A DNA stretch of 64,000 nt. It comes from a candidate division FCPU426 bacterium (GTDB lineage Bacteria; Oederibacteriota; Muellerivitia; Muellerivitales; Muellerivitaceae). The DNA is taken from NCBI GenBank assembly GCA_963738405.1, contig CAVTWJ010000004.1, forward strand, positions 13,499 through 77,498, given 5' to 3'. Position 1 is the first letter of the stretch. Each line of letters starts with the position of its first letter. Both the position numbers and the translations under genes were made by a program. Under the pieces are notes generated by a model, which was given only the letters and a program-made list of their open reading frames with translations, was not told the DNA's origin and did no database searches. Shown one piece after another: positions 21,090 through 63,222 of the stretch.

Positions 21090-21126
21090 GGCGCTTGGAC
21101 GAAAGAAAAAGGGAATCGCTTTGAAA

Positions 21127-23621: not shown

Positions 23622-23624
23622 GGG

Positions 23625-28130: not shown

Positions 28131-28247
28131 TGCCTTTTCAGTATGAGAAGTGAGATGTGCAGGGTTGTGTAAAAGAAGCAAGCAGTTCAATGTTGGAGAA
28201 GAGTCCAGGGTGGACTGCCATTCGCAGCAAAATTGAGGGGGATTAAG

Positions 28248-29414: not shown

Positions 29415-29440
29415 CCAATAGCAGGGGAAAGAAAGGGAAT

Positions 29441-36151: not shown

Positions 36152-38887
36152 ATGAAGAATCAGTCCTTGTTGATTACGATCGGGCTTTTGTTTTTTGCAG
36201 CTTGCTTCTATATTTCCTGCGGAAGCGGCAGTCCCACGGCGCCGGCCCCCACCCCCGTTCCCGTGCCCACCGATACCCCTTGCGGTTATCCGGGCAATAC
36301 CTGCACAGTGACCTCCACCTTTACCTCGACCGATACGCCTACCTCGACCCATACGGCCACGACCACTTATTCGCCCACCCAAACCAATACCCCGACCCAA
36401 ACCTTCACCTGGACGGTCACGAAAACCCCGACGGACACCTTTACGTCAACTTCCACCTTTACGATAACGGATACACCGACAATAACGGATACACCCACCC
36501 ACACCCACACCTACACCTTCACCTTCAGCCCCACGGAAACCAGGACTTCGACGGAAACCTTCACACCGTCCGATACCCCTACGATTACGGATACCCCCAC
36601 CGTATCCAACACGCCCACCGTGACCAATACCCTGACCAGTACTACCACGCCCACTGTCACGAACACGGTGACCTGCACGAACACCCCGACCAACACTTCC
36701 CAATATTCCTCTACCTATACACCCACGATCACTCGCACGGCCACGATCACCTTAAGTCCCACCAATACCTCCACGTCCACGCCAGTGGGTATTTTCGTCA
36801 GCGGTTCGGTGACCTACACGGGGGCGGGAACCGTCTCGTCGGCCAACCCCATCGTGATTATCGCCTCCAATCCCCTGGCAACGAACGGGATGCCCGAAAC
36901 GGTTATCACCACAAACGGAGGCTCTTATTCTTTCGCGGTGACCGGTGGGAATAATTCCATCGTCTGCTGGTACTCGAACAAAGCGCCGCTCAATTGCCTG
37001 ACGAATGGCGGGGCCCCAGAGCAGGGGAATTACATGGGCTGGTACAACGGGGGCGCCCAGCCAGTCACGATCAATATCACTTCCAGTACTTCCAACATCA
37101 ACGTCACGATTGGTTCGGGCAGCGCCCTCCAGGGGGTTGCCGGGCCGGTGAGTTACCTGGGATTGAACAGCGTCGATAACAACCACCCGGTGATCGTGGA
37201 ACTCTTCAAGGACAGCGGCTACAGCACCCTGGACCAGTCGATGGGCCCGGGCGAGGAAGAGTTCAGCTGTGCCCATTCGACTTACAACTTCGCCTCCAGC
37301 AACAACGGGTCGACCGAATACCTGCTGGCTTTCCAGGACAACGCGGGTACGGGCCGCGTGAACGCCGCCAGTCAGGTTCCCGGCGGGGACCCGATGGTTT
37401 TGGCCGGATCCGTGGTGATTGGTACCTCAACGACCAAGAATATCGCTTTTCCCACTTCCACGCCGACCATGACGGTCACCTCCACCCCGATCCCCGCCCC
37501 CTACGTCTTCAAGGGAACGATCCATTACACCGGCGCAAAAAGCACTGCGGGCCAATACCTATTGATGATGGCCACCACCTGCATCAGCTGCGGCGGCAAC
37601 GATATGGTCACTTGGTCCACCCCGGGAACCTCGAGCGCGGTTTCCTATACCCTCAACCTGCCCTCCACCGGCAGTTACGTGGTCATGGGCATGTTGTCCA
37701 ATGATCCGGTCATGAACGGGCCGCCGCCGGTGGGCGCGCCTTACGGATTCTACGGAACAGGCACTGTTTGTTTGGGAGGAACACCCACGACCCTGGCCGT
37801 GAACGGGCCTACCACGCAGACTGCCAACATGTCTTTTGGGGACAGCTGCGAACTGAATGGTGTTTCGGGGACCATCAGCTACACCGGCGCGGGCTCAGTG
37901 GGCAGTAATGGTAACTCGCTGTATGTGACGGCTTATACGGATTCAAGCTACTCGACTCAGATTTCGGGACCCGGAAACAACTCCGTGACGGTGAATGGGG
38001 GCACTTATAACGTGATCAACACCGGCGGCGCCCCCACTACCGTCTATCTCCAGGCTTATTACGGGTCCGACAATAACAACGCCCCGGCAACCTGTGACGC
38101 GGTGACCAATTTAGGCCCGGTGGCCTTCAACACCACCACGACCACCAAAAATATCACGCTTTCCGACGCCTTCCTCTACAACTGCACGAACACCCTCTCG
38201 GGCACCGTCAATTGGACAGGGGCCGGCACGGTCAACACGTCCGATCCCATCGTCGTGCATGCCGTCCTTTGCCCCAGCGGGGATTGCAACAACCAAACGA
38301 ACTACTCTTGCGCAGTGACCCAAAACGGCGGGAACTATTTCGTGGGTTTTCCCGCAGCGGGATCCGTTTACGTTTCTGAGGAATACGTGGCCACGGGAAG
38401 GATTTGGAACAATTGGGATTACAACATCGGAAGCTACGCCGAAAATGCCGATGGAACTTGTTCCATCGAGACCGGCAATAATGGAAACCCCGTCATCGTC
38501 AGCGGAGCCGCCGTTTCAAACCTGAGTTTCGGTTCCAGTTGTGGACAACTCCAGGGTTATACCGGAACCGTGACCTATAACGGTTCCAAGGGCGCCCCGA
38601 CTTGCAATGGAAACCCCGGACGCCAAATTTGGGTCTCGGCCACGTATGGAAACAGTAAAAACGAGTTTTCCTATTGGGATACTAGCGTATGCAATAACGG
38701 TGACACCTATAAGATCATCTATGGAACAACGAGCGCGAGTCTATATTTGAGGGTCTGGTTTGATGACCAGGGTACGGGTGACCACCAGCCGCAGACCGGC
38801 GAGTCTGGGACCGTAGTGGGTCCCTACGTTACGAGCACCAACCCAACCTCTATCAACATTTCCTTTGATGATTCCCAAACCTGGTAA
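36152..38887 (+). CDS. Large repetitive surface lipoprotein: lipobox, ~180-aa Thr/Pro-rich tract, then ~5 repeated ~130-aa domains (G-x-[VI]-x-[YW]-T-G-A-G)
   Basis: Signal peptide plus lipobox YISC; TPT/TDT low-complexity region; recurring GSVTYTGAG, GTISYTGAG, GTVNWTGAG, GTVTYNGSKG units; terminator follows. Confidence 0.7.
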   Translation: MKNQSLLITIGLLFFAACFYISCGSGSPTAPAPTPVPVPTDTPCGYPGNTCTVTSTFTSTDTPTSTHTATTTYSPTQTNTPTQTFTWTVTKTPTDTFTSTSTFTITDTPTITDTPTHTHTYTFTFSPTETRTSTETFTPSDTPTITDTPTVSNTPTVTNTLTSTTTPTVTNTVTCTNTPTNTSQYSSTYTPTITRTATITLSPTNTSTSTPVGIFVSGSVTYTGAGTVSSANPIVIIASNPLATNGMPETVITTNGGSYSFAVTGGNNSIVCWYSNKAPLNCLTNGGAPEQGNYMGWYNGGAQPVTINITSSTSNINVTIGSGSALQGVAGPVSYLGLNSVDNNHPVIVELFKDSGYSTLDQSMGPGEEEFSCAHSTYNFASSNNGSTEYLLAFQDNAGTGRVNAASQVPGGDPMVLAGSVVIGTSTTKNIAFPTSTPTMTVTSTPIPAPYVFKGTIHYTGAKSTAGQYLLMMATTCISCGGNDMVTWSTPGTSSAVSYTLNLPSTGSYVVMGMLSNDPVMNGPPPVGAPYGFYGTGTVCLGGTPTTLAVNGPTTQTANMSFGDSCELNGVSGTISYTGAGSVGSNGNSLYVTAYTDSSYSTQISGPGNNSVTVNGGTYNVINTGGAPTTVYLQAYYGSDNNNAPATCDAVTNLGPVAFNTTTTTKNITLSDAFLYNCTNTLSGTVNWTGAGTVNTSDPIVVHAVLCPSGDCNNQTNYSCAVTQNGGNYFVGFPAAGSVYVSEEYVATGRIWNNWDYNIGSYAENADGTCSIETGNNGNPVIVSGAAVSNLSFGSSCGQLQGYTGTVTYNGSKGAPTCNGNPGRQIWVSATYGNSKNEFSYWDTSVCNNGDTYKIIYGTTSASLYLRVWFDDQGTGDHQPQTGESGTVVGPYVTSTNPTSINISFDDSQTW
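36270..36790 (+). repeat. Low-complexity ACC/ACG-rich coding repeat (Thr/Pro linker of the lipoprotein)
   Basis: Imperfect tandem acg-ccc-acc / acc-gat-acc units encoding TPT, TDT, TNT. Confidence 0.5.
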
Positions 38888-42363: not shown

Positions 42364-43776
42364 TTGCGTGCCCATCTTCTCATTGTTGACGATGAAGAAA
42401 GCGTTCGTGAATCTTTCCGTCTTGCTCTCCAGGAAAAATACGAGATGACTTTTGCCGAGAATGTTAAATCGGCATTAAAGGCGCTTAAACTTCGGGATTA
42501 TGACCTTTGCCTGCTTGATATTCTCCTGCCGGACGGGTCGGGAGTGGATCTTTTAAGGCAGGTGAAACGGAGGGACGAGACCCTAGACGCCATCATGGTG
42601 ACGGCGGTTCAGGGTGTGGATGTCGCATTGGACGCGATGAAACTTGGCGCTTACGATTACGTGACTAAACCCTATAAACTTGAAGAGTTGTATGCCGTCA
42701 TCCATCGCGCGCTTATGAAGCGTAAAATGGAACGGGAAAACCGTTACCTGAAAGAAGAAAGACAAAAACACCATCCCCTGGCCCTGTTGGGCTCCAGTCC
42801 GGAATTTCGTGAAGTCCTTAAAAAAATCGAGGGAATCGCCGCGGTGGAGGGTCCGGTTTTAATTACAGGGGAATCGGGATGCGGGCAGGAAGACATCGCC
42901 CGGGAAATTCATCGATTAAGCCCAAGATCCAACGGTCCCTTTGTCTGTTTGGATTGTTCCGACGTTCAGAGGGGACATTGGGACAGTGAACTTTTCGGCA
43001 TGGAGGGGGATGATTCGTATAAAAGAACTCCTCAATACGGCAAATTGGATTTTGCCCAAGGGGGGACTCTTTTTTTAAACCAAGTCGATTCCATCCCCGC
43101 CCTAATACAGGACAAGCTGGCCGACGCGCTAACGGAAAAGCAATTTACCCGGCTGGAAAGCAAAGTCGTTCAATCGTTGGATGTCCGGGTGATCGCTTCC
43201 TTCGAAATCGAATCGTCGGCCCACACCGCCGCACCGCCATTGCGAAAAGACCTTTTCCAAATATTGAAGATTTTCCCCTTGGCCATTCCGCCTTTAAGGG
43301 AAAGGGAAGGGGACCTGCCTGAACTCCTAAATCAATTCCTTAAAAACGCCAATCAAAGGGCCAATGTTCCGGTTAAAACGATTCATAAGGATGTCATCCA
43401 GCTTTTGGTGAAATATCCTTGGCCCGGAAATCTTCGGGAAATGGAAGCGGTTGTGGAAATGATGGTTCTCTTCGCGGGGAAAGAAAGCCTGGGAATGGAG
43501 GATGTTCCCCTTGATTTACTTGTAAAACAAATCGACCTGGCTCCGTCGAGGGAGGACGCTAAAATTTCCCTCAAAAGGGTCCGTCACCAGTTTGAAAGGC
43601 AATATATCCGGAATGTTTTGGAGCGCACCCGGGGAAACCAAACCCGGACCGCGGCAACTCTTGGACTTCATCGCAATACGCTCATCTGGAAATTGAAAGA
43701 ATTGGATCTTGAAGGTGAATATAAGCAGATTGTGAAGAAGAGGCGTGATCGGGGGATTGGTTTTAAGGACCTTTAA
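42364..43776 (+). CDS. NtrC-family response regulator (REC + AAA+ sigma54-interaction-like + Fis HTH) with a degenerate AAA+ core
   Basis: REC domain with acceptor Asp (CLLDILLPDGSG); Walker A GESGCGQE (Lys to Gln), Walker B LFLNQVD (DE to NQ), GAFTGA absent (ELFGMEGDDSYKRTP); C-terminal HTH TRTAATLGLHRNTLIWKLK. Confidence 0.8.
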   Translation: MRAHLLIVDDEESVRESFRLALQEKYEMTFAENVKSALKALKLRDYDLCLLDILLPDGSGVDLLRQVKRRDETLDAIMVTAVQGVDVALDAMKLGAYDYVTKPYKLEELYAVIHRALMKRKMERENRYLKEERQKHHPLALLGSSPEFREVLKKIEGIAAVEGPVLITGESGCGQEDIAREIHRLSPRSNGPFVCLDCSDVQRGHWDSELFGMEGDDSYKRTPQYGKLDFAQGGTLFLNQVDSIPALIQDKLADALTEKQFTRLESKVVQSLDVRVIASFEIESSAHTAAPPLRKDLFQILKIFPLAIPPLREREGDLPELLNQFLKNANQRANVPVKTIHKDVIQLLVKYPWPGNLREMEAVVEMMVLFAGKESLGMEDVPLDLLVKQIDLAPSREDAKISLKRVRHQFERQYIRNVLERTRGNQTRTAATLGLHRNTLIWKLKELDLEGEYKQIVKKRRDRGIGFKDL

Positions 43777-43779
43777 TTT

Positions 43780-44952
43780 ATGAGCGAATCTAAGATTCCG
43801 TCATCTTTCCCAGGAATGATCCCCCTGCGTTCCCTTTTGAAAACAGGGACTGACGACTCCCTTGATCTTGCCACCCTAAGCCGATACCTGGAAGAACGCT
43901 TTCATTACCCCCCGCTGACTTTTTTGCGAAAAACCCATGAGGGATTGCTGGGTTCGTGGAATGGCTCACCCGTGCGGATCGCCCCCTCCACCTCCCGCTA
44001 CCGGCAAATGGCGAGTTCTTTAAAAACCTCTAGGGGGGTGCGCTCAAACACAAAGCCCTGGGCTCTGTTATTTCCAGTTTTTGTCGGCCAGGAATGGGTG
44101 GGATGCCTGGCGGTCGGTCAAGACGCCGGGGGGAAAGAACTGTCGCGTCATTTCCTGGAATCCTGGATTCCCCTCCTCGTTTGGACACTGGGAATGGTTT
44201 TGGAAAACCGCCAGCTTGGGAAAATGCTTGAAAGGGCCGATCGTCAATCTTCTCTTGGGTTTCTTTCCGCCGGAGTATTTCATGAAATAAGAAATCCACT
44301 GACCGCCTTGAGCACCTTAATTCAATTACTGCCCCTGAAAAAAAATGACCCGGCCTTCATGGATTCTTTCCAAGCTCTCATGCTGAAAGAATTGGAACGC
44401 CTTGAGGTCTTGACCGATCAAAGTTTAAAGTTCGCCCGAACAGGCGGGAAGACCGTCGAGGACGTGGACTTACAGGAAACCCTTGAACGCATTCACCAGC
44501 TCATCCGGCCCAGTCTTGGCCGTAAAAAAATCCGTTTTTTATTTAGAGTTGAACAGGGCTTGAGCCTCAAGGTTGAACAGGCGCAATTTGAAAGCTTGGC
44601 GGTGAATCTGCTTAAAAACGCAATCAACGCCGTCGGAGGGAAAGGATTGGTTCAGGTGAGCGCGAAAAGGCTCCGGCCCGGCAAGGGCATTGTAAAATCC
44701 TGGGTTTGTCTTTCGGTCAAGGATGACGGCAAGGGTATCCCGTCAGGGGAAATTGAGAGGATTTTTGACCCCTATTTCACGACCCGAAATGGCGGAACGG
44801 GGTTGGGACTTGCCATTTGCCAGAGGATCATGGAAAACCACGGTGGACATCTTAAAGTAAAGAGTAAACGAAGGCAGGGCACTGTTTTTACAGCCTATTT
44901 TCCATCTCATTACAGGGTAAAAAATAAGGGGTTTTCCGATTTCCAACCCTAA
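43780..44952 (+). CDS. Cytoplasmic sensor histidine kinase (GAF-like N-terminal domain, HisKA, HATPase_c)
   Basis: H-box FHEIRNPLTAL; N, G1 and G2 boxes (NLLKNAINA, VKDDGKGI, GGTGLGLAICQRIM); no TM segments. Confidence 0.85.
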   Translation: MSESKIPSSFPGMIPLRSLLKTGTDDSLDLATLSRYLEERFHYPPLTFLRKTHEGLLGSWNGSPVRIAPSTSRYRQMASSLKTSRGVRSNTKPWALLFPVFVGQEWVGCLAVGQDAGGKELSRHFLESWIPLLVWTLGMVLENRQLGKMLERADRQSSLGFLSAGVFHEIRNPLTALSTLIQLLPLKKNDPAFMDSFQALMLKELERLEVLTDQSLKFARTGGKTVEDVDLQETLERIHQLIRPSLGRKKIRFLFRVEQGLSLKVEQAQFESLAVNLLKNAINAVGGKGLVQVSAKRLRPGKGIVKSWVCLSVKDDGKGIPSGEIERIFDPYFTTRNGGTGLGLAICQRIMENHGGHLKVKSKRRQGTVFTAYFPSHYRVKNKGFSDFQP

Positions 44953-45010
44953 GCCATTCTTTAATTTTTATAATTTTGGTATCCTTGGGTGACAAATTTG
45001 GAGGGGGCAG

Positions 45011-45634
45011 ATGGTCGATCAAAAAAAACGGATATTGATTCTTCAAATGAATCCCGTTTTTCTGAAAAAGCTCGTGAAATCATGTTCCTCACTCGGCGAT
45101 GTATTTACAGCGCAATCTCCCGAGGAGGCGTTAGAAGCGGTTTCACTTAACACCTTCGATCTGCTTCTTTTACAGTGGGAACTTATTTCTGCCGACAAAC
45201 CCCTGAATTTTGAAACCATCCGCCAATTTCAGCCCAAAAGCGCGAAAATAGCTCTTTTGCACATTTCGGATTTGTCCTCCGTGATATCGGCCATGAAAAC
45301 GGGCTTTACGGACATCATCTGGTTCGGGATTGAACGGATTCTTCTTAAACAAAAACTGGAAGATTCTTTAACCTTTAGTCCTATGACGGGTGTCAATCAC
45401 ACGCATATGACTCCTCTAGTGAAAGCCCTGACTCAAAGGAACCTGGATCAAAAAGCCACTCTTTTTCAGGCTCGGAAAGAATTTTCGAAACTGTTTTTGC
45501 AAATGATGATGAAACACAGCCGATTACGCCGACCCGAATTAGCAGCCCTTTTGGAGGTAAGTCCCCGAACCCTTCAGCGCCATTTGACCCTTTCGGGCAT
45601 TTTCAAATCCTCACTAACCCCCAAAAACCCTTGA
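45011..45634 (+). CDS. Pseudo-receiver domain protein with a C-terminal Fis-type HTH
   Basis: CheY-like fold (RILILQMN...FDLLLLQWEL) but the phospho-acceptor Asp position is Gln; C-terminal ELAALLEVSPRTLQRHL. Confidence 0.5.
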   Translation: MVDQKKRILILQMNPVFLKKLVKSCSSLGDVFTAQSPEEALEAVSLNTFDLLLLQWELISADKPLNFETIRQFQPKSAKIALLHISDLSSVISAMKTGFTDIIWFGIERILLKQKLEDSLTFSPMTGVNHTHMTPLVKALTQRNLDQKATLFQARKEFSKLFLQMMMKHSRLRRPELAALLEVSPRTLQRHLTLSGIFKSSLTPKNP

Positions 45635-52834: not shown

Positions 52835-54100
52835 TCAACTTCCCGCGATCAGTTTTTCCCACAAAGCCTCATTGATCATGATCTTGCTGATGAAGTCTTT
52901 TTCGTCAATTTCGGCGGAACGCGCGACCGGGTTGAGAGGAAAGGTTAAAGTGAAAACATTTCCCTTGCCGTTCTCGTTTCGCGCCGTGATGCGCCCGCCG
53001 TGGTGATAAACGATGAAAAAGCACGTCATCAGATAGATACCGAATTCGCTGGGCTTGCCGCTGCGCACGAAAAAGGGATCGAAGATGGATTGGAGCGCGT
53101 CCTGGGAAAGGCCCGGGCCGTTGTCCTCCAGCTCAATCTGGATTTCCCCTGGTCCTTCCTTGGGGCCGATGGCCTCTGCGGTCCATTTCACCTGTCCTCC
53201 CGAAAATAGGGAAGCGGCTTCCTCCATCAATAAAAGCTCGAAAAGGCGGTGAAACTGCTTTTGGTCCACGTGAAGTTCGGGCAGGGAAGCGGGAATCTTG
53301 TTTTGGACGGCGATACCTTTCTGATCCAGTTCGGGCTTCACCTTGGCGATGGCCTGCTCAACCACCTGGTGAAGGCTCACCTTGTCGGGGAATTCGGGGG
53401 AGGGTCTTTCCGAGGACTCCCATAGGTCGCTTAAAAGGTTGACCACCTTGTCCATTTGCCCCTGAACCTTCTGGTAATAATCCTTCCAAAAGTCGGGGTT
53501 GCGCAATTGCTCGACGTTGATGTTTTCTTCCTGCAGTTTCCTGGGGGCCAGGTCCAAGAAGGTCTTCACTGCCACCATCGAGTTGCGGATGTGGTGACTC
53601 AAACCGGTCGCGAGAATACCTAAGCTTAAAATCCGGTCGGTCAGCATGACGTTGTAAAGGGTGGACATCTTTTCCCGCAACAGCTGGTCCCTTTCGCTTT
53701 GAACCATGAAAAATTCCAAGCCGCGCTTGAGGGTGATTTCCAACTGGGGGATATCCCAGGGTTTGGTGATGTATTTATAGATGGCGCCCGTATTAACGGA
53801 ATCGATGGCGGTTTCCAGGTCCGAATAGGCGGTAACCAGTATCCGCAAGATATGGGGCTTCAAATGGCGGGCTTTTTCCAGAAGCTGGATGCCCTTTTCT
53901 CCGGGCATCCTTTGGTCGGTCATGAGGACGGCGATTTGAGCCAGGTTTTCCCTTAGGATCTGGTAGCCCTCAAAGGCGTTGGGCGCGGTCAAAACCGAGA
54001 ATTTCTCCCCAAAAGCCTCCCGAAAATATTTCAAGGATTTCTCTTCGTCGTCCACGTAGAGAATGTAGAATTTTTTATAGTCGTAATAGTTGGTTGTCAT
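52835..54100 (-). CDS. Receiver (REC) domain fused to a C-terminal histidine-kinase-like transmitter (PhcR-like architecture)
   Basis: REC: ILYVDDEEKSL, acceptor LMTDQRMPGEKG, KPW; HisKA-like GLSHHIRNSMVAVK; HATPase_c N/G boxes (ELEDNGPGLS, FDPFF, SEFGIYL). Confidence 0.8.
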   Translation of the reverse strand: MTTNYYDYKKFYILYVDDEEKSLKYFREAFGEKFSVLTAPNAFEGYQILRENLAQIAVLMTDQRMPGEKGIQLLEKARHLKPHILRILVTAYSDLETAIDSVNTGAIYKYITKPWDIPQLEITLKRGLEFFMVQSERDQLLREKMSTLYNVMLTDRILSLGILATGLSHHIRNSMVAVKTFLDLAPRKLQEENINVEQLRNPDFWKDYYQKVQGQMDKVVNLLSDLWESSERPSPEFPDKVSLHQVVEQAIAKVKPELDQKGIAVQNKIPASLPELHVDQKQFHRLFELLLMEEAASLFSGGQVKWTAEAIGPKEGPGEIQIELEDNGPGLSQDALQSIFDPFFVRSGKPSEFGIYLMTCFFIVYHHGGRITARNENGKGNVFTLTFPLNPVARSAEIDEKDFISKIMINEALWEKLIAGS

Positions 54101-54112
54101 AGTCCGTCCTTT

Positions 54113-56755
54113 TTAAGCTTTCGCCGGTAATTCAAGGGTGAACTCGGTAAATTTCCCCTTTTCACTCCTCGCCGAGATCCTTCCCCCTTGCTCCCGCAAA
54201 ATGCGGTAGCAAATACTCAAACCCAATCCCATGCCCTGTCCCACGTCTTTGGTCGTAAAAAAGGGATCAAAGATTTTATCCAGGTTTTCGGGGTTGATTC
54301 CTGAACCGTTGTCCCGGACCTGGATGAACACCTTCCCGTTTTCAAAACGGCTCTTAATCCATATCAGGGGCTCTTCGCCATCGAAATTCTTTTCCTTCAG
54401 GGCGTCGGAGGAATTTTGAATCAAATTCACGAAAACATGGATCATCTTGTTCCGGTCGGCCAGGACCTGCTGGTCTTCCGGCACTTCGATTTCGACCTTG
54501 ACCCTATCCTTTAATTCGTGGCCCAGAAAGCGTAAGGCGTTGGAAAGAATTTCTTTTAAGCCGATCAGGTCCACGCTTCCCCCTGCCTTGGGGTGGGTGA
54601 AGCTGCGAAGATCGGACACGATGCGCTGAACCCGGTTCACTCCGTCCTCGATATCGGTGACGGTTTCAACGAACTTTTCCCTTTCTTGATCGGGCAGGCG
54701 GTCTTTTTTCGCTTTCAACAGATAGAGGGCTTGCACGGCGTAATTGAGAGGGTTGTTGATCTCATGAATAATACCGGCGCTGAGACGCCCAAGGGAAGCC
54801 ATCTTTTCGTTTTGGACCAATTGCCCTTCCGTTTCCTTCAGCTGTTCGAGAGTCGTTTCTAGTGCACTTTTTTGTCGGATCAACTCCCGCTGAAATTGAT
54901 GGGATTCGATCAAATTTTTGACTCGTACATGCAGTTCGGTGTTGGAAAAAGGTTTTGTCAAAAAGTCGCTCGCGCCGGCGTCCAAGGCCGAGAATTTGGT
55001 GTCCTCGTCGGCCCGGGCGGTCAAGAGCACGACAGGAATGGCTTGGGTGGAAACTTGTTTTTTCAATTCCCGGCATGCCTGGACGCCGTCTTTCTCGGGC
55101 ATCATCATGTCCAGCAGGATAAGATCGGGCAGGAACTGCTTTGCCTTTTCCACCGCCTGGTTTCCATCCACGGCCTCGATGATCTCGTAATGTTTTTCCA
55201 AGCGCGATTTGATGAACCTCAGCATGTCCGGCTCATCGTCCGCCACCAGCACCTTTTTCTTTTGGCTATTTCCGTAGTTGTCCGTGCGGAGGGACTCCGA
55301 AAGGGGCGTCAGGGTGCTGAAAAGCTCGGCTCGCCTGTAAAGATTGGTAAGCCATTCCTCGTCCTGGGCAGATTCGGCCAACATTCCACCGGGTTCCCCG
55401 GCTTTTTCGGAGACCGGAGAGGTCTTGGCCGCCTCGAAGGGAATCCGGATCGTCATGGTCGTGCCCGCTCCCAGACGGCTTTGAGCCGTGACAGAGCCCC
55501 CTTGGGCTTCTGTTAATTCCTTCACCAGGGCAAGGCCGATGCCCGTTCCCTGGTACTTCCTTTGGGCCGAGGAATCGGCTTGCCAGAAACGGTCGAAGAT
55601 AAAGGGAAGATTTTCCTCGGAAATCCCCATGCCCGTATCCTTGATCACTAATACCAGTTGGGAATCTTCTTTATTCGCGGTCAATTCCACCCGCCCCCCG
55701 CTGGGGGTGAACTTCAAGGCGTTAAAAAGGAGATTGAGGATGATTTTTTCCATTTTGTTCTGATCCAGCATGACGGCGCCAATGGATTCGTGGACGCGGG
55801 TGGAGAGGTTGATCCGCTTGTCCTTCGCCGTGCCCTGAATGGACTGGATCAAACCCTTCACGAAGAGTTCCAAATTCACTGGTTCTTTTTTGACCTCCAT
55901 GCGGCCCGATTCCAGCTTGGCCAGGTCCAGAAGGTCATTGATCAGTTTCAATAAACGCATTGCGTTGTTTTCCATGGTGGACAGGATGTCCCTGGATTCC
56001 TCATCCAACAGATGCTTTTTTTGATTTCTCAGGGCCTGGAGGGGCGAAACGAGAAGCGTTAAGGGCGTTCGGAGTTCATGGCTGATATTGGCGAAGAAAC
56101 GGCTTTTCATTTGATCCATCTCGATCAGTTTTTGATTGGTTTCCGCAAGTTTTTTTCGGTTCTGGTCCAGCTCATAACGGGTCGTGAACTCCCGGATGCG
56201 CAGGCGGTTAGTGAAATAACTTCCAACGACCGCGAAAGTGGAAGTCAGAATGAGGAAATAGGTATTGTTGAAAAAAAGGCCACCGAAGGAAACCGGCCCG
56301 TGGGCAAAGCAGGCGGTTAAGTACATCAGAAAGGTCAGCCCGGAAAAAATGAGCGTTTCCTGGTAGGTCCAGGGAGAGACCAGGCAAAAGGCCACCAAAA
56401 CCACGTTGAGCCCGGCGTAATAGGGGGAGTGGGCTCCTTCCGAAGCGTAAATCATCCAGGCGATGGCGCCCTGGGGCACCATGAGCATGGCGATGAAGAA
56501 AACCCGGTCCAATCGCGCGGCCCAGGGGCGGTAATAAAGGATTAAAAATATGCCCACCAATAAGGAAGAATACAATCGGAGCTCTAAAAAATAAGGAACC
56601 AACGAGGGATAAACATTCATGTCCAACGATATGCCCGCCGGCATCCCAACCATCGCGAAGATACATACGATTTTAAATAAACGGGACCTTTCCGCCCGGT
56701 TGTAATCCTCATAGGCTTTTTGAACTTCAGGCTGTTCCAGCAGTTTTTCTTTCAT
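54113..56755 (-). CDS. Multidomain hybrid sensor histidine kinase (7-8 TM sensor, HisKA+HATPase, REC, second HisKA+HATPase)
   Basis: N-terminal polytopic domain; H-box 1 [10 protein letters not shown]; HATPase 1 [17 protein letters not shown]; [25 protein letters not shown]; H-box 2 [10 protein letters not shown]; HATPase 2 [17 protein letters not shown]. Confidence 0.85.
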
Positions 56756-58167
56756 TTGGGTTTCCTCACCTCAAGAAAAATATTGATGCCTGTGTCTTCC
56801 AATGTGATTTCGCAAGCACCCTCGGGGGCACCTTCGGGTTTAAGGATGCCCATTTGTTCCCGATTTCGATAGATCAAATGCCATTCCATGAAACTTTCCA
56901 TCGTGTTAATCAGAGGATTGGTGGGCGTTACGTTCGTCGCCAGCAGCAGCCCACCCGGAGCCAGAAGGGCATAGAAATAATCCATCAGTTTTTTGCAAAT
57001 CCGGTCCTCCAGGTAATCGAAAAGGCCTGCGACATAGATGAAATCATAGACCCCTTCCTTTGGGCCTTCGTAGGGTTTGAAAGTTTCTTTAAGGATATGG
57101 TTGACGGATTTCTTGACCATTTTGATGGGCGTCCCACGGCGGTGTCGGCTCTTGATGTCATCCAAAATCTTTCCAGTGAATTCCAGGGTCTCGTCGTTGA
57201 AGTCATACAGGGTAAAGTCCGCCTTTTCGCAATAATCGTCGTGGGCCAGGAAGTTTTGGACTTCTTTGGCTGGGCCGCAGGCCATGTCCAGAACCCGAAG
57301 GGTGCGGTTTTCCCGGATCGCCCGCATGGTTTCCTCGTTCAACCTTTGGATGAGGTGCTTGATGCGGTTGCGGTGGGCTTCGCAGGGCGGCGAATTCACA
57401 AACCAGAGGTTCACGATCTTGGCGAAAAGGGTGCTTCCCTCCAGGGGGTCCCTCAGCATCATATTGACCATTTCATAATCGCCGGCGTACCCCAGCGGTT
57501 TTTGAAAACTGCGGTAAACAAAGGGCGAGCAAAGAATGATGGGGTGCATTTGCCGGCGGCTGTAGGAACGGTGGATGGATTGAAGCTCGGGGGGTATCCC
57601 CGCGATGGTCTCCTCAAATCGCTCGAAGAGCGATGAAACAGTCGGGGCGATGGGGTCCTTCAATTGAAGGATGACGTCCCGTTCAGTCTGGTTCCGGTTC
57701 CCCGAGGGTTCGGACCGGATGCTCAATTCCACCTGTTCCAGCCAGCGGCGCATATCCATCAAGAAAGTCTGCATATCGGCGATCACCACCTTGAGGTTGT
57801 CCTCGATGTGGTGGATCTTGTCCCATTCTTTCAGAAATTCGGAAAATTCGCTCTGAAGCTTGTCTTTCTGGTGGATGGAGGAAAAGATATCAACGTCCAG
57901 CCAATTGTCCTCCAGGGTGCATTCGCAAACCAGGAGGATGCCGGTGTTCAACAGGTTGCTCACGACCGCGCGGCCGGAATAAACCATCCGTTCATTCATC
58001 ACCATCTTAAAATCGGTCAGGACCTCAGAGAGCTGGAGAATGCTGTAAGGGTTGTAAACCTCGAAGACGACCGAATAACGGGTCAGCCGCAGGAGGGTGG
58101 CCCGCACCTCGGCTCCCTGGCTGTTGCGGCAGTGGATAAAAGTGTCTCTACCCGTCGAGATGGACAT
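56752..58167 (-). CDS. Two-domain SAM-dependent methyltransferase (PhcB-like: N-terminal domain of unknown function plus C-terminal class I MTase)
   Basis: MTase motif I LRVLDMACGPAKEV, acidic-loop FTLYDFNDE, motif II/III YDFIYVAGLFDYLED; start refined to MSISTGRD to avoid the 110-nt overlap with the PPTase. Confidence 0.75.
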   Translation of the reverse strand: MSISTGRDTFIHCRNSQGAEVRATLLRLTRYSVVFEVYNPYSILQLSEVLTDFKMVMNERMVYSGRAVVSNLLNTGILLVCECTLEDNWLDVDIFSSIHQKDKLQSEFSEFLKEWDKIHHIEDNLKVVIADMQTFLMDMRRWLEQVELSIRSEPSGNRNQTERDVILQLKDPIAPTVSSLFERFEETIAGIPPELQSIHRSYSRRQMHPIILCSPFVYRSFQKPLGYAGDYEMVNMMLRDPLEGSTLFAKIVNLWFVNSPPCEAHRNRIKHLIQRLNEETMRAIRENRTLRVLDMACGPAKEVQNFLAHDDYCEKADFTLYDFNDETLEFTGKILDDIKSRHRRGTPIKMVKKSVNHILKETFKPYEGPKEGVYDFIYVAGLFDYLEDRICKKLMDYFYALLAPGGLLLATNVTPTNPLINTMESFMEWHLIYRNREQMGILKPEGAPEGACEITLEDTGINIFLEVRKPK

Positions 58168-58184
58168 GTCGCTTTTTTTCCGAT

Positions 58185-59021
58185 CTAAGATGGGGTCTTT
58201 GAATATCGAAACTCCAGAGTTTCCCGCAGTTTCTTTTCGTCCCAGTGGAATTTTTGATAAATCGGGCTGGGACCTTTCCGTGAAGAAGCCAGCCAATTTT
58301 CATTCCCGGGCCCGGTGATTTCACCGAGGATCGTCGCGTGACTCAAACAATAGCGGTCCTCCAACACGAATTGGGAAAATAGTTCGACAGAACCCCGGCG
58401 GATTCGTCCTTCCGGAGGAAAGGAAACCGTGAAAGAACCGTCATCCCCGCCCCATCCCAGGCCCATCGCCTTCAGAAATGCTTCTTTTAGGGTAAAGATT
58501 CTCAGAAATACCAAAGGGCGTAAGGCTCGCGGCTGCTTCTCCAGATATTCTTTTTCCTCCGTGGAAAAATAACGGTCCGCGATCAGCCGCCAATCTCTAT
58601 TTTTCGACTCCATAAGCGCTAGTTCCACATCGATTCCAACAGGAAAAGCTGAAACCGTCAGGGCCACTAGGCCTTCCGTATGGGAAAGATTGAAATGTAA
58701 GTCCCGGCTTCTCAAAGCGGGTTTACCGGAGGGACTTAGGATGAATTCTAAATCTATCATTTCCCGGCCAGTGTAAAAAGAAAGCAAGTGACGGGTCAGG
58801 ATGCGGGAAAAAAGAAATTCCTTCTTGGCGTAATGCAAACTCAGGAAATGAAAATCGCGATTTTCGTCAGGGCTCAGAAAATGAATCAGGAATTCGTCCG
58901 GATGTTGAGTGGGTTTGGAATCAAATTCAAGAAGGTGAATGTGGATCGCATTGAGAGATAGAGCTTCGGGGCTCTCTGTCTTGCGGTCCATCGCAAGGTT
59001 TGGGTTGGGGAGGGTCATCAT
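58185..59021 (-). CDS. 4'-phosphopantetheinyl transferase (Sfp/EntD family)
   Basis: PPTase motifs FNLSHTEG, GIDVE, FTLKEAFLKAMG. Confidence 0.8.
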   Translation of the reverse strand: MMTLPNPNLAMDRKTESPEALSLNAIHIHLLEFDSKPTQHPDEFLIHFLSPDENRDFHFLSLHYAKKEFLFSRILTRHLLSFYTGREMIDLEFILSPSGKPALRSRDLHFNLSHTEGLVALTVSAFPVGIDVELALMESKNRDWRLIADRYFSTEEKEYLEKQPRALRPLVFLRIFTLKEAFLKAMGLGWGGDDGSFTVSFPPEGRIRRGSVELFSQFVLEDRYCLSHATILGEITGPGNENWLASSRKGPSPIYQKFHWDEKKLRETLEFRYSKTPS

Positions 59022-59737
59022 CCGGCGCCGCCGTCCATCACCATGACACTTCCATTGAGGTATTCCGGGGCTTCCTCCGCTAGAAAATAGACAACGCGGG
59101 CGACCTCCTTCGGTTCACAGAAACGTTTCAAGGGAACGACTTGAAGAAGGGCTTCCTTCGCCTGCGGGGAAAGCTTATCGATCATGGGGGTGGTCACCCC
59201 TGCCGGCGCCACCACATTGGCGATGACCCCGTAGGGTCCGCATTCCTTGGCCAAGGCCTTAGTAAAACCGATGATGCCGGCCTTGGAGGCTGAATAGTTG
59301 GTCTGACCCGGCAATCCATGGATTCCGGAAACGGAAGAAAGATTAATGATCCGGCCGTTCTTTTTTTTCATCATGTCGGTGGCGAAGCGGCGGGTCAGGT
59401 GAAAAACGCCTGTCAGGTTGGTGTTCAAAACATCCGTCCAATCCTCATCTTTCATAGCGAAAAGGGGTTTGTCCCGGGTGATTCCGGCGTTGTTCACGAG
59501 TACGTCCACATTCTTTTCTTCGTCTAAAACCGCTTTGCAGAAACGATCGCAAGCTTCCCGGTCCGCCACATCTAGATGATGGGCCCGGGTCTTTCCGTCA
59601 AAGCGTCCCTCGATCTCACGGGCTGAAGCCTCATTGGAATGGAACGTGAAATGAACCTTCCATCCTGCGGCCGCGAAGGTTTCCACCAGACTTTTCCCGA
59701 TACCGGAGGAACCGCCCGAAATAACCACCTTTTTCAT
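59018..59737 (-). CDS. fabG: SDR-family 3-oxoacyl-ACP reductase (FabG-like ketoreductase)
   Basis: GGSSGIGKS Rossmann motif, NNAG, catalytic S...YSASK. Confidence 0.85.
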   Translation of the reverse strand: MKKVVISGGSSGIGKSLVETFAAAGWKVHFTFHSNEASAREIEGRFDGKTRAHHLDVADREACDRFCKAVLDEEKNVDVLVNNAGITRDKPLFAMKDEDWTDVLNTNLTGVFHLTRRFATDMMKKKNGRIINLSSVSGIHGLPGQTNYSASKAGIIGFTKALAKECGPYGVIANVVAPAGVTTPMIDKLSPQAKEALLQVVPLKRFCEPKEVARVVYFLAEEAPEYLNGSVMVMDGGAG

Positions 59738-60183
59738 GAAAGCCTCAATTTTCCAATAAGAAATTTTCCGGAAGCCACTTCATTTCCATCGACATAACCC
59801 TTTCCCTCGAAGATCCGGTTCGGCGGGACCGTTTTGGTCAGCTTCATATGAATTTCCAGCTGATCCCCCGGAAAAAGGGGCTTGAGGAACCGAAATTCCA
59901 ATACCGCCCCAATCGCGTCAAAGACCCCATCCACCGCCGACCCTTCCGTCAAACGGATCAGGAGGGTGGCGGCCTGGGCGAAGCATTCGATGGTTAATAC
60001 CCCCGGAAATACCGGATAGTCCGGAAAATGGCCCTGGAAATGGATGTCGTTGACGGTGATGTTTTTAAGCGTGTGAAGTTCCTTTCCCTTTTCCCAGGAT
60101 AAAACCCTATCCACCATGAACAATGGAAAGCGCTGTTTTAAAAAGGACAGGTCTGGAATTTCCTCCATGGGCTCAAGCGGCAT
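59734..60183 (-). CDS. FabZ/FabA-like 3-hydroxyacyl-ACP dehydratase (hotdog fold)
   Basis: HFQGHFPDYPVFPGVLTIECFAQA (catalytic His and Glu); start could be M at 60183 or M at 60168 (MEEIPD, aligning with FabZ N-termini). Confidence 0.8.
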   Translation of the reverse strand: MPLEPMEEIPDLSFLKQRFPLFMVDRVLSWEKGKELHTLKNITVNDIHFQGHFPDYPVFPGVLTIECFAQAATLLIRLTEGSAVDGVFDAIGAVLEFRFLKPLFPGDQLEIHMKLTKTVPPNRIFEGKGYVDGNEVASGKFLIGKLRLS

Positions 60184-60421
60184 GAACCATCCCTTCAATT
60201 ACTTCCGACGCCGTATTTACTGTCCCCATTTTGATCAGCTGGTCGGGATCGATCATAACGTTGAACTCGGTTTCCAGCTTGGCCAGGAATTCCAGAGCCC
60301 TCATGGAATCATACTTGGCCATTTCCTTGAAGGGCTTCTCATCCGCAACGTCAGCCGGAGGCACGTCGAACATCCCGGCGATAATTTCCCGAATCTTCGA
60401 TTTGATTTCAGCGGCTTCCAT
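60173..60421 (-). CDS. Acyl carrier protein
   Basis: 82 aa, phosphopantetheine-attachment motif YDSMRALEF (DSM-type serine). Confidence 0.85.
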   Translation of the reverse strand: MEAAEIKSKIREIIAGMFDVPPADVADEKPFKEMAKYDSMRALEFLAKLETEFNVMIDPDQLIKMGTVNTASEVIEGMVHAA

Positions 60422-61330
60422 TTATTGGCTCCTTTTTTTTCGAGCGATTTTAACCAGCGATATCCTTTTTTCTTCCGCCGCGACGGCCCCGAGAACCCCC
60501 AAATGATTGGGGGAGGATAAGAAATGTTCCAGGGAAATCCTTCCGTTGAGGCCCAATTCCAGGATAGAGGAATTGGGAACAAAACGGAAAACTCCTTCCG
60601 GCAGCAGTTTTTCCACCGGAGTTGCCATCGGGAGTCCGATCCATTCGGCCTCGTCCAGAAGGCTTTTCAAAATATTCCCCGAGCCTGCCGGCAAGGTTCC
60701 GTCCGGCTTCCATTGCGCCGAGGCGTAATCCTCAACTTGTAGAAAGCCCTCGTCATCCTCCGAACCCGACGCCCGCATCAAAAAGGCTCCTTCCTGGATG
60801 GTAAGGCTCGGGTTTCCTTTGAGGCCCGCCTTTTTAAGAAATTCCGGAATCTTTTCGGCCGCGCCCACCAGGCAGCTTTGAAAAAGGCCGCCATTCATAC
60901 CTTCCCATGCGAAGCCTAAAGCGTCGATAAAAGAGGTTCCGCCGTTGGTCAAGGTAATGTTCGGCCCCTTGAGCTGCAGCCAAATGCCAATCCGGCTTCC
61001 CGCCGCGTTGGCAACGGTGTTTGGAAAATCCATGGGATTGACGGTATTCGGCCCCTTTATAAGGGCCTGACGGTCGAATTCCACTGAGCTTTCAAAGGCG
61101 CCGAAGGCCGTTCCCAGGATGACCGCGTCGGTCGGGTTTGGAACGGGAGGATTGTCGCCCCGTCGGAAAATCCGGCCTGCGGCGATTCCCGCCATCAGGG
61201 AAAGGGTGTCGATGTATTTGGGCGATTGATCCGGGAAAAGGGCCTGAAATTCTCCGGGTAAATCCTCCATTTTAAGCCCCTCCTGACCCAGTAGGACAGA
61301 GGCCTTCCGCTGGAGGACGAGAGGTTTCAT
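60422..61330 (-). CDS. Ketosynthase-like partner without an active-site Cys (chain-length-factor / KS-beta-like)
   Basis: 302 aa thiolase-fold-like with no ACxSG cysteine motif; translationally coupled (ATGA) to the upstream KS. Confidence 0.65.
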   Translation of the reverse strand: MKPLVLQRKASVLLGQEGLKMEDLPGEFQALFPDQSPKYIDTLSLMAGIAAGRIFRRGDNPPVPNPTDAVILGTAFGAFESSVEFDRQALIKGPNTVNPMDFPNTVANAAGSRIGIWLQLKGPNITLTNGGTSFIDALGFAWEGMNGGLFQSCLVGAAEKIPEFLKKAGLKGNPSLTIQEGAFLMRASGSEDDEGFLQVEDYASAQWKPDGTLPAGSGNILKSLLDEAEWIGLPMATPVEKLLPEGVFRFVPNSSILELGLNGRISLEHFLSSPNHLGVLGAVAAEEKRISLVKIARKKRSQ

Positions 61331-62589
61331 GAGGAAGCCTCCGGTTTTATCAAGACTAAGCAGGAGGTATTGCCGCCAAAGGCAAAGGAATTGGAAAGGG
61401 CCACCCGGCCCTGGAAGGCCCTGGCCTGGTTGGGAACGCAGTCCGCGATACAGTTTTCGTCGGGAGTATCCCAGTTGATGGTGGGGAGAAGAATTCCTTT
61501 TTCCAGGGAGAGGCAGGTCATGACAGCCTCAATAGCGCTGGCCGCGCCCATGGTGTGCCCGATCATGGACTTGATGGAATTCACCGGGACGGGCCGTTCG
61601 GTGCCGAGCGCTTTTTTGATAGCGGTGGATTCGGTCTTGTCGTTGGCGGGGGTTCCGGTGCCGTGGGCTGAAACACAATCCACATCGGCGGCCTTTAGGC
61701 CCGACTGGTCGAGCGCCCGCTCGATGCTGGCCAGGGCGCCTTCCCCTTCCGGGTGGGGGGAAGTCATGTGATAGGCGTCCATCCCCAGTCCGTAGCCGCC
61801 CACCTCGCAATAGATATGGGCGCCCCTGGCCCTGGCCCTCTGTTCCTCCTCGAGCAAAAGAACACCCACTCCCTCGCTGACTACCAGCCCTTTCCGGTTG
61901 GCGGAGAAGGGGCGGCATTTGTCGGGGGTAAGGGAAAGCAGGCGGTTGAAACCGGTAAAGGCAATCCTTGAGAAGGGGTCCACTCCTCCGCATAGGGCCG
62001 CGTCCAAACGGCCTTGCCGGATCTGCTCAAGTCCCCACCCAATGGCGTAATTCCCGGAGGCACAGGCGTTGGAAAATACAAGCGACCGTCCTCCCAGTTT
62101 CAAAAAATTCAAAACGGAAGAGGCAATACTGGAAGCCTGAACCCGGTGAAAGGAGGCTGGTTCCATTTCGGAGTTATCTGTTTGGATTTGGGTTTTGGAG
62201 AGGCGCTCCGTCAGCTGAATTTCACCCATCGTTGTCCCAAAGAAACAGCCGAATCGAATTGAATCCAAGTCGCCCGGCGCAAGACCGGCGTCCTGTAGGG
62301 TTTCTTGAGAGGCAAGGATGGAAAGGATCGAAGCCATTTCATACCGGCCTGGGTTTTCTCGTTCAAAATTTTCCAAACGTTGGCGGTCTTTGATCTCGCC
62401 GCCGATTTTGACCCGGTAAGGGGAAGGGTCCATTAACGTCAGGGGCGCTACTCCGGACTGGCCCTCTGCCATGGCCGTCCATACCGAAGCGACCCCGTCT
62501 CCCAATGGACAGATCACACCCAAACCGGTTACAACGGCTCTTTTGTGTTTCATCCCGGGCTCCTGTTTCTTTGCGACTGGCGAGTACAA
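61327..62589 (-). CDS. Beta-ketoacyl-ACP synthase (KAS II/FabF-like, KS-alpha)
   Basis: Catalytic triad context SNACASGNYAIG, HGTGTPANDKTE, IGHTMGAASAIEA; 420 aa; first gene of the minus-strand operon. Confidence 0.9.
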   Translation of the reverse strand: MYSPVAKKQEPGMKHKRAVVTGLGVICPLGDGVASVWTAMAEGQSGVAPLTLMDPSPYRVKIGGEIKDRQRLENFERENPGRYEMASILSILASQETLQDAGLAPGDLDSIRFGCFFGTTMGEIQLTERLSKTQIQTDNSEMEPASFHRVQASSIASSVLNFLKLGGRSLVFSNACASGNYAIGWGLEQIRQGRLDAALCGGVDPFSRIAFTGFNRLLSLTPDKCRPFSANRKGLVVSEGVGVLLLEEEQRARARGAHIYCEVGGYGLGMDAYHMTSPHPEGEGALASIERALDQSGLKAADVDCVSAHGTGTPANDKTESTAIKKALGTERPVPVNSIKSMIGHTMGAASAIEAVMTCLSLEKGILLPTINWDTPDENCIADCVPNQARAFQGRVALSNSFAFGGNTSCLVLIKPEASS

Positions 62590-63222
62590 TTTATTAACAG
62601 ATAGAAGGGATAAAATATGTGCAACTTCATACGATGGAAAACAATTTTATGATTCCTCACGAACCCTGGATGATTATATTCATTGCGCGACTTTCAGGAG
62701 AAACCATAACGTTAAACGAAACCTATCGGGAGACTTTTTGAAAACTGTTGCTTTTTTGTCCGATTTGGAAGGAAGGACTAAGGGGAGAAGGGTTAATTAA
62801 TAGGTATTTCTTGGTTCTCGAGTCGTAAAGTTTGTTAGGTGGGGTTTGACAGAATTTTTTTCACTAAGAGTCATTTTGTTAAGTGAGTGTGAATTTGAGA
62901 AGACGAAGAGGGAGGTAAGTAACGATTGCCCTTCCACCCATCGTTAGACTCGTTCACCCCAATTAGGATGCTTATGGTTACGTAGGTTCATCCGTTAGGT
63001 GTTTCAAAACTGAATCGTGAATCAATAACTTCTTCTTTGTTTGGGTTGTAAATGCATGTTTTCTTGAATTTCTCAGATTATCGGTTAAGGACCGTGATGA
63101 TCGTTGCCTTGAAAACCCCACACAGCTCGCCTAGCTTTTAAAAGGGCTCTTTTATCCATCGGTCCCCGGTGTTAAGGTATCGTTAAATCACTTGCTTTGC
63201 TCCGCTTTCATGAGGTCATCAA

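Follow-up and report, generated by a model that had tools for sequence, protein, structure and literature searches.

To our knowledge, Phc quorum sensing has been studied almost solely as the virulence switch of the Ralstonia solanacearum complex. The canonical gene order is phcB-phcS-phcR-phcQ, and PhcR consists of a receiver and a histidine-kinase-like output and lacks a DNA-binding domain (PMC8578825). In Ralstonia, PhcB is required for the synthesis of 3-hydroxypalmitic or 3-hydroxymyristic acid methyl ester (3-OH PAME/MAME), and PhcS is required for perception (PMC8578825). Here, we describe a block of nine genes in a 64,000-nucleotide (nt) stretch of DNA from a candidate division FCPU426 bacterium (contig CAVTWJ010000004.1, positions 13,499 to 77,498; the whole stretch is called the window in the following), in which homologues of PhcB, PhcS, and PhcR are preceded by six genes for acyl-chain synthesis. 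We regard it as moderately probable that, in the FCPU426 lineage, a Phc-type module for the synthesis and perception of a lipid signal has come to share an operon with a private cassette that resembles a type II fatty acid synthase (FAS).

Parts of the locus also resemble two further described systems. The anammox proteins amxFabF2 and amxFabFmut form a heterodimer that is similar to a ketosynthase (KS) and a chain-length factor, decarboxylates malonyl-acyl carrier protein (malonyl-ACP), and prefers C6-C8 probes (bioRxiv 10.64898/2026.05.19.726425). In the dead subunit, amxFabFmut, the residues Phe135, Thr138, and Val139 line the substrate tunnel (bioRxiv 10.64898/2026.05.19.726425). In pathogenic Leptospira, LvrA phosphorylates LvrB in vitro (PMC5863495), and LvrB serves as the structural prototype for kinases that are controlled by a receiver (PMC13269768).

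All nine open reading frames (ORFs) of the block are located on the minus strand, and together they span positions 52835 to 62553. In the direction of transcription, they encode a KS, a short KS partner (KSb), an ACP, a dehydratase (DH), a ketoreductase (KR), a 4'-phosphopantetheinyl transferase (PPTase), a methyltransferase (MT), a hybrid sensor kinase (HK), and a receiver-controlled kinase (REC-HK). The proteins of the window were analyzed with Pfam and NCBIfam profile searches, and for all nine ORFs the domain matches agreed with the identities proposed in a first-pass annotation of the sequence. The ORF coordinates and the domain searches also bore out its description of nine minus-strand genes that overlap or are tightly spaced. 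Within the block, adjacent genes overlap, abut, or are separated by no more than 17 nt. Overlaps of four nt occur between KS and KSb, DH and KR, KR and PPTase, and MT and HK; the ACP and DH genes also overlap, the KSb and ACP genes abut, and the gaps comprise 17 nt between PPTase and MT and 12 nt between HK and REC-HK. The annotation had placed the operon start at position 62589. While the ORFs are real, the KS gene more likely starts at the ATG at 62553 than at the TTG at 62589. The ATG is preceded by an AGGAG box, and initiation at this codon yields a protein of 408 amino acids (aa), the same length as that of the orthologues.

Upstream, the block is flanked by a divergent relA/spoT-like gene on the plus strand, which starts at about 63219 according to a six-frame translation. 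Downstream, a convergent Wzy_C/TPR gene on the plus strand ends at 52825, 9 nt from the last stop codon of the operon. The nine genes are thus an isolated and translationally coupled minus-strand unit between genes on the opposite strand. The base composition of the block resembles that of its flanks, and an Rfam search of the window gave no match. The catalytic or phospho-acceptor residues are intact in the KS, ACP, DH, KR, PPTase, both kinases, and both receivers.

The Phc-like triad and its distribution

The last three genes of the block, MT, HK, and REC-HK, encode homologues of PhcB, PhcS, and PhcR, respectively, in the same gene order. As Phc reference proteins, we used Cupriavidus and Paraburkholderia orthologues that are encoded in phcBSRQ loci and stand for those of R. 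solanacearum. Ralstonia itself gave no match in the plasmid collection and was not found among the best 120 matches of a second protein search, which listed Cupriavidus, Paraburkholderia, and Massilia. The Cupriavidus locus has the order phcB-phcS-phcR-phcQ and encodes a PhcS of 443 aa (MASE8-HisKA-HATPase), a PhcR of 381 aa (receiver (REC)-HisKA-HATPase), and a PhcQ of 332 aa (REC).

The MT gene (56752-58167, minus strand) encodes a PhcB-family S-adenosylmethionine (SAM)-dependent methyltransferase of 471 aa. The protein is 39% identical to the PhcB orthologue of Cupriavidus necator (residues 1-467 versus 1-461, E 5e-116). In a tblastn search against plasmids, it was 38% identical over the whole length to a methyltransferase of Paraburkholderia graminis. 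The gene for the latter is located in a methyltransferase-kinase-regulator-regulator (phcBSRQ-like) locus, and close relatives of its product include Cupriavidus proteins at 68% identity. More than 5744 relatives of the MT were found, many of which have been named 'extracellular factor (EF) 3-hydroxypalmitic acid methyl ester biosynthesis protein' by the Joint Genome Institute, which is the KEGG label for phcB. The METHYLTRANSFERASE fold of the MT was analyzed with an AlphaFold2 model from 51 homologues (mean predicted local distance difference test score 84.7). The model predicts a PilZ-like beta-barrel (residues 8-85), a helical domain (104-285), and a Rossmann-type class I methyltransferase domain (290-468), so that the earlier description as a two-domain protein has to be replaced by three predicted domains. 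Alignments of 8 and of 51 sequences revealed invariant motifs in all three. The N-terminal barrel lacks the canonical motifs for binding of cyclic di-GMP, and Pfam does not detect a PilZ domain. The N-terminal domain is also present in the PhcB orthologues of Cupriavidus and Paraburkholderia, and searches with the PhcB-specific residues 1-285 retrieved 1,236 representatives of 50%-identity clusters at E<=1e-3 and 211 at E<=1e-30. Judged by these alignments, the MT is a full-length PhcB homologue, including the N-terminal region, and its initial classification as PhcB-like was correct.

The HK gene (54113-56755, minus strand) encodes a hybrid sensor kinase of 880 aa. Its domains comprise about six transmembrane helices (PhcS/MASE8-like), a HisKA-HATPase module with His226, a REC domain with Asp549, and a further HisKA-HATPase module with His664. 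Pfam thus identified two complete kinase modules that flank one receiver. This verified the hybrid nature of the kinase that had been noted before, but the presence of two kinase modules and a receiver makes it longer than PhcS. The PhcS proteins of Cupriavidus and Paraburkholderia align twice with the HK. First, PhcS from the membrane domain onward aligns with the N-terminal hydrophobic domain and the first kinase module (28% identity). Second, the PhcS kinase core matches the second kinase module best (36-37%, E about 1e-57 to 1e-60). By these alignments, the HK looks like a PhcS whose sensor domain and kinase core have been separated by an additional HisKA-HATPase-REC segment. Precomputed MASE8 matches are listed for orthologues of the HK.

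The REC-HK gene (52835-54100, minus strand) encodes a PhcR-like receiver-controlled histidine kinase of 421 aa with a REC domain (Asp62), a HisKA domain (His169/170), and a HATPase domain; Pfam found no DNA-binding domain. The protein is collinear with Cupriavidus PhcR (residues 13-388 versus 11-370, 25% identity, E 9e-33), and its REC domain and linker are 39% identical to a PhcQ-like regulator of P. graminis. The homology of the two kinases to PhcS of Cupriavidus and Paraburkholderia and to PhcR of Cupriavidus corroborates the PhcS- and PhcR-like character that had been assigned to them.

Among species-representative genomes (one per species), at least 594 loci contain a relative of the MT. 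The best 80 of these loci were compared by tblastn with all nine window proteins. They belong mostly to Verrucomicrobiota, and some are from metagenome-assembled genomes (MAGs) classified as delta proteobacterium, Binatia, Limnocylindria, and Pyrinomonadaceae. The closest ones are from MAGs of 'candidate division FCPU426', with MT identities of 63-79%. A long kinase follows the MT in 64 of the 65 loci with enough flanking DNA, and REC-HK follows in 60 out of 64; the other four contain partial or shifted matches. One of these four, L085 from a Verrucomicrobiota MAG, encodes a short PhcS-sized kinase at +1.4 to +4.3 kb from the MT. Because of this locus, it is clear that long sensors of the 880-aa type and short PhcS-type sensors both exist outside of Burkholderiales.

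Within the best 80 loci, the six synthase genes are confined to those of the FCPU426 type. Since the Phc-like triad occurs widely where no synthase block is present, this block is a lineage-specific addition outside the core Phc-like module. The first-pass annotation had considered that the two kinase genes might be separable from the synthase genes. However, within the FCPU426-type clade HK and REC-HK are always co-conserved with them. Matches to promoter- or terminator-like sequences inside the nine-gene block did not exceed the expectation from shuffled sequences.

In the other loci, the commonest gene immediately upstream of the MT encodes a FadL/TodX outer-membrane channel for hydrophobic compounds. 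It is present in about 40 of about 73 non-FCPU426 loci (among L005-L086), 26 times on the same strand as the MT and 14 times divergently (e.g. L068:8435-9826 and L071:1748-3046). This neighbourhood fits a lipid-like molecule that crosses the outer membrane. Genes that also recur next to the PhcB-like gene encode a third REC-kinase in 27 loci, a NarL-type regulator in 14, and a short-chain dehydrogenase/reductase (SDR) in about 10. The window contains no counterpart of the FadL gene, nor of the FAD oxidase gene of the relatives described below.

The acyl-chain synthase block and the surroundings of the locus

The first six genes of the block encode the enzymes of the synthase. The KS (61327-62553, minus strand) is a FabF-like ketosynthase of 408 aa with an intact Cys164-His297-His333 triad and Pfam matches to both the N- and the C-terminal ketoacyl-synt domains. 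It scored below every NCBIfam FabF cut-off (TIGR03150: 368 versus 494 bits). The ACP (60173-60421, minus strand) has 82 aa, a Pfam PP-binding domain, and Ser39 in a DSM motif. It reached only about 38 bits with the AcpP models, the cut-offs of which are 66-71 bits, and is therefore a dedicated and not the housekeeping ACP. The DH (59734-60183, minus strand; about 149 aa, Pfam FabA-like) is a FabZ-type 3-hydroxyacyl-ACP dehydratase, which passed the NCBIfam FabZ model NF000582 (115.5 versus 113 bits) and contains His52 and the Glu motif. The KR (59018-59737, minus strand; 239 aa, Pfam adh_short/KR) is a FabG-type 3-oxoacyl-ACP reductase, which contains the Ser-Tyr-Lys residues and passed the FabG subfamily model NF009466 (241.6 versus 222 bits). 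The PPTase (58185-59021, minus strand; 278 aa, Pfam ACPS and AASDHPPT_N) is of the Sfp/HetI type, and its best NCBIfam match, HetI, remained under the cut-off. With regard to membership in the housekeeping FAS II, the KS and the ACP therefore failed the FabF and AcpP equivalog cut-offs, whereas the FabZ and FabG-subfamily models were passed.

The sixth protein, KSb (60422-61330, minus strand), is a chain-length-factor-like KS partner of only 302 aa. It has Gly130 at the position of the catalytic Cys, lacks the C-terminal KS domain, and gave a weak Pfam match to the N-terminal KS domain alone. The motif NPMDFPNTVANAAGSR was invariant in an alignment of six orthologues. Together, the profile searches and residue checks confirmed the early identification of a KS, a Cys-less partner, an ACP, FabZ- and FabG-like enzymes, and a PPTase.

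The best solved relative of the KS was chain B of structure 9s5h (361 bits), and the scores with other solved KS were 279 bits for a cyanobacterial FabF, 276 bits for the ishigamide KS (Iga11), 220 bits for AntD, and 216 bits for the actinorhodin KS. For KSb, the best solved relative was chain C of the same structure, over residues 38-158 and including the NPMDFPNTV motif. From its chain composition and sequence, we infer that 9s5h is the Brocadia amxFabF heterodimer of the preprint cited above. The tunnel residues Phe135, Thr138, and Val139 fit the F-x-x-T-V of the conserved KSb motif. Judged by residues and motif, KS and KSb are a pair of the amxFabF2/amxFabFmut type and are predicted to form a heterodimer. 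They group with the FabF2/FabFmut type of anammox bacteria and Desulfotalea and not, as had been considered possible, with aryl-polyene synthases or aromatic type II polyketide synthases (PKS).

The short form of KSb is rare. Among 5.8 billion proteins, only 66 clusters were found, all of about 295-310 aa, and a metagenome collection contained 13 orthologous loci. A PhcB-like MT is located downstream of KSb in all 12 loci with enough downstream DNA (L002, L004, L008, L009, L048, L088, L094, L095, L098, L099, L168, and L169), and both kinases are present as well where the flank allows. The closest relative is L088, in which the MT is 89% identical and the genes that flank the block in the window are kept. 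In the relatives, variable tailoring genes are inserted directly beside the MT. A gene for a flavin adenine dinucleotide (FAD)-dependent enzyme similar to amine oxidases and phytoene desaturases occurs in L004, L007, L008, L009, and L168, and a second SDR gene occurs in L004 and L048. The cluster of the window contains neither the FAD oxidase nor the second SDR. The FAD amine-oxidase-like enzyme of the relatives is 26% identical (E 1e-46) to its homologue in the anammox/Desulfotalea cluster.

A metagenome scan yielded 67 distant loci (L101-L167, e.g. L112:7685-13995), which share another layout. In these loci, an ACP and a FabA/Z-like DH are combined with two KS proteins, one of which is 43-45% identical to the KS of the window while the other is dead but full-length; genes for a FAD amine-oxidase-like enzyme and a B12 radical SAM enzyme complete the set. 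A PhcB-like gene was not found in any of the 67 KS/dead-KS loci. These loci are of the same type as the Kuenenia/Desulfotalea cluster that has been discussed for ladderane or polyunsaturated lipid synthesis (PMC2649909).

The region upstream of the KS gene (62554-63218, minus strand; about 665 bp) is the sole sizeable non-coding stretch at the block. For this reason, it is the probable promoter and regulatory region. Some 210 nt ahead of the KS start, it contains a conserved 13-mer, AATCGGACAAAAA (62753-62765, minus strand). L088 and L009 have the identical 13-mer at a comparable position (about 210-240 nt before KS), and a relaxed form, GACAAAAAA.CAAC, is present in L008, L048, L094, and L168. 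A TATAAT-containing block, GAATATAATC (62672-62681, minus strand), is conserved with L088 and L008 and is a candidate -10 element. No site with the sigma-54 -24/-12 consensus was found upstream of KS, and the matches in the whole window were fewer than expected by chance.

On the plus strand, positions 42364-45634 encode a trio that consists, according to Pfam, of an NtrC-type sigma-54 response regulator (42364-43776, 470 aa), a histidine kinase (43780-44952, 390 aa), and orf207 (45011-45634). In L009 and L004, orthologues of the trio (53-66% identity) immediately precede KS and have the same orientation, and a kinase gene together with an orf207-like gene follows REC-HK in L002 and L169. Tentatively, the trio might represent the DNA-binding output of the relay, or the association might reflect mere synteny.

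Several further features of the window were observed. Between 46148 and 52825 (plus strand), two tandem PMT_2-domain membrane proteins (816 and 810 aa) are followed by a fusion of a Wzy_C O-antigen ligase and TPR (629 aa), and this envelope-glycan trio converges on the 3' end of the operon. Two large plus-strand ORFs, at 33363-35003 (546 aa) and 36152-38887 (911 aa), had no Pfam match at E<=1e-4. The 38-46 kb stretch after these two ORFs has a G+C content of 0.46-0.49, compared with 0.50-0.62 elsewhere in the window. At about 10700-30700 (plus strand), many consecutive ORFs share one strand, and by their lengths alone they resemble a dcw (division/cell-wall) cluster.

Proposed pathway and rival explanations

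The following pathway would be compatible with the gene content. The Sfp-type PPTase would activate the dedicated ACP. The predicted KS/KSb heterodimer, as an anammox-type pair of KS and chain-length factor, would prime synthesis by decarboxylating malonyl-ACP and would elongate the chain to a defined length, which would probably be short to medium. The FabG- and FabZ-type enzymes would process the beta-carbon. Because the operon does not encode an enoyl reductase, the chain would either be unsaturated or be finished with the help of the housekeeping FabI. In the relatives, the FAD desaturase-like enzyme and/or the second SDR might tailor the chain further. The PhcB-family MT would then methyl-esterify the (3-hydroxy)acyl product, and the resulting ester would be volatile or diffusible. 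It would partition into the membrane, where the six-helix PhcS-like domain of the 880-aa kinase could sense it. The phosphate would be transferred from His226 to Asp549, and the receiver would turn on the second kinase module. Its His664 would phosphorylate Asp62 of the PhcR-like receiver-kinase, which could pass the signal via His169/170 to a DNA-binding regulator. A candidate for this last step is the NtrC-type regulator encoded next to the cluster in the relatives.

The first-pass annotation had proposed that a single unit encodes synthesis, modification, and perception of an ester signal. The gene identities and the co-conservation behind this proposal are solid, but from the genes we can only infer the nature of the acyl chain, its 3-hydroxylation, and the role as a signal.

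Several observations weigh against this proposal. The identities to experimentally studied Phc proteins are just 25-39%. The HK, unlike its orthologues, scored below the Pfam threshold for MASE8. The block does not encode a thioesterase that would free the carboxylate needed by an O-methyltransferase, nor an acyltransferase or an enoyl reductase. Neither a PhcQ gene nor a LysR-type PhcA-like regulator was identified within the 64-kb window. Moreover, because most members of the triad occur without a synthase block, the MT is clearly able to use a substrate from general metabolism, and proximity on its own is no proof that the MT receives its substrate from the cassette.

One alternative is that the product of the nine genes is not a signal but a lipid with a structural or protective function, methyl-esterified or modified in another way, or else a secondary metabolite, e.g. 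an unsaturated fatty acid ester, and that the kinases regulate its production in response to another cue, e.g. the state of the membrane. The KS pair and the FAD oxidase of the relatives indeed resemble the Kuenenia/Desulfotalea clusters, which were proposed to make unusual membrane lipids or hydrocarbons, the neighbourhood includes envelope-related genes (the two PMT_2-like genes and the Wzy_C gene), and kinases with six transmembrane helices can sense membrane properties. However, the triad is kept as a unit in hundreds of genomes that have no dedicated lipid synthase, and its genes correspond one by one to homologues in a proven synthase/receptor pair. In addition, acyltransferases would be expected for a bulk lipid pathway, but Pfam detected none among the nine genes. 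We consider this explanation unlikely.

It could also be argued that the MT acts on a protein or a small metabolite, in a CheR-like manner, and that the synthase cassette is a functionally separate neighbour that happens to share the transcript. This seems improbable to us, given that the MT has full-length homology to PhcB, the loss of which abolishes 3-OH PAME/MAME production in Ralstonia. Furthermore, the KSb cassette is strictly coupled to the MT (12 of 12 loci), the tailoring genes are located directly beside it, and FadL is associated with the MT in other loci.

The idea that a truncated aryl-polyene, flexirubin, or aromatic type II PKS pigment cluster merely adjoins a two-component system can draw on the combination of a KS with a Cys-less partner, a KR, and a DH without an enoyl reductase, which is the layout of highly reducing type II PKS, and on weak ApeI-like and FlxB-like matches, but it is highly improbable because these matches are below the cut-offs (ApeI-like 24.4 versus 28.5 bits, FlxB 221 versus 340 bits) while the FabZ and FabG-subfamily models are passed, the KS is far closer to 9s5h chain B than to Iga11, AntD, or the actinorhodin KS, Pfam found no genes for an aryl starter, cyclase, aromatase, LolA/MMPL export, or glycosyl or acyl transfer among the nine, and the unique 302-aa form of KSb is found only together with PhcB-like genes. 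An identity as an aryl-polyene or aromatic PKS, which had been listed as an option at the outset, is thus largely refuted by sub-cut-off scores, the affinity of the KS pair to another group, and the missing accessory genes.

Comparison with known systems

A literature search within the accessible library yielded no paper on Phc homologues outside of Burkholderiales or on a fused synthase-Phc arrangement. This agrees with the earlier statement that the arrangement is undescribed, and KEGG-style automatic labels do exist. The PhcB-PhcS-PhcR module has deep homologues across many environmental phyla. It is conceivable, and we propose this tentatively, that Phc-type signalling is no peculiarity of Ralstonia and Cupriavidus but represents a widespread family of cell-cell communication via lipid esters in Verrucomicrobiota, FCPU426, and other phyla, and that in FCPU426 the skeleton of the autoinducer is wholly built by an anammox-type mini-synthase encoded on the same transcript. 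If the proposal is true, the product would be a chemically new (short or unsaturated) fatty acid methyl ester signal, the block would be a self-contained and transplantable cassette for making, modifying, and sensing it, and communication between cells of an uncultured candidate phylum would become accessible for the first time. With a size of 9.7 kb, the cassette is compact, and its heterologous expression could reveal a new signal molecule together with its receptor.

Operons in which condensing enzymes make autoinducers are known, namely pqsABCDE, darABC, cqsA/cqsS, and lqsA/lqsS. In these systems, signal-specific chain assembly is linked to a cognate sensor, and PqsB and PqsC are a heterodimer of an active and an inactive KS-like protein. 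They belong to unrelated families, and we know of none that joins a complete ACP-dependent mini-FAS, a PhcB-type MT, and a multi-kinase relay.

The block shares several features with phcBSRQ of R. solanacearum and Cupriavidus. These are the order of MT, membrane sensor kinase, and receiver-kinase, a six-helix sensor domain and a kinase core that are homologous to those of PhcS, and the unusual REC-HisKA-HATPase layout of PhcR. In contrast, the sensor of the window is twice as long and contains the additional HisKA-HATPase-REC segment. PhcQ is lacking from the operon, and the gene after REC-HK is the convergent Wzy_C/TPR gene; the relatives of the locus carry other extra kinases instead. In addition, six acyl-chain synthesis genes precede the MT in the same block, and the host belongs to an uncultured candidate phylum and not to the betaproteobacteria.

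The kinases can also be compared with LvrA and LvrB of Leptospira, where the first gene likewise encodes a kinase-REC-kinase protein and the next one a REC-kinase that has no DNA-binding domain. Among the NCBIfam models, LvrA matched the HK best, but the score of 333 bits is far below the cut-off of 1200. LvrA has a cytosolic PAS sensor, whereas the HK of the window has a six-helix membrane domain, and the Lvr paper does not mention a methyltransferase (PMC5863495). By analogy, the HK/REC-HK pair would work like the Lvr pair, yet it is not a member of the Lvr family.

The synthase block is most similar to the FASII-extension cluster of anammox bacteria and Desulfotalea, which comprises amxACP, amxFabZ, amxFabF2, amxFabFmut, a phytoene-desaturase-like enzyme, and a radical SAM enzyme. 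Both contain a KS with an intact triad (45% identity) and a dead KS homologue that retains the tunnel-lining DFPNTV helix-loop-helix, as well as a dedicated ACP and a FabZ. However, the partner in the window has 302 aa instead of the full-length FabF fold of about 410 aa, and the gene order is KS-KSb-ACP-DH instead of ACP-DH-KS-KSbeta. The window block additionally encodes FabG and the PPTase, lacks the radical SAM enzyme and the FAD oxidase, and is joined to signalling genes. By these sequence comparisons, the synthase block is a reduced relative of the anammox-type KS/dead-KS system, and it provides this type of pair with a second gene neighbourhood, far simpler than the first, in which a role in determining chain length could be tested.

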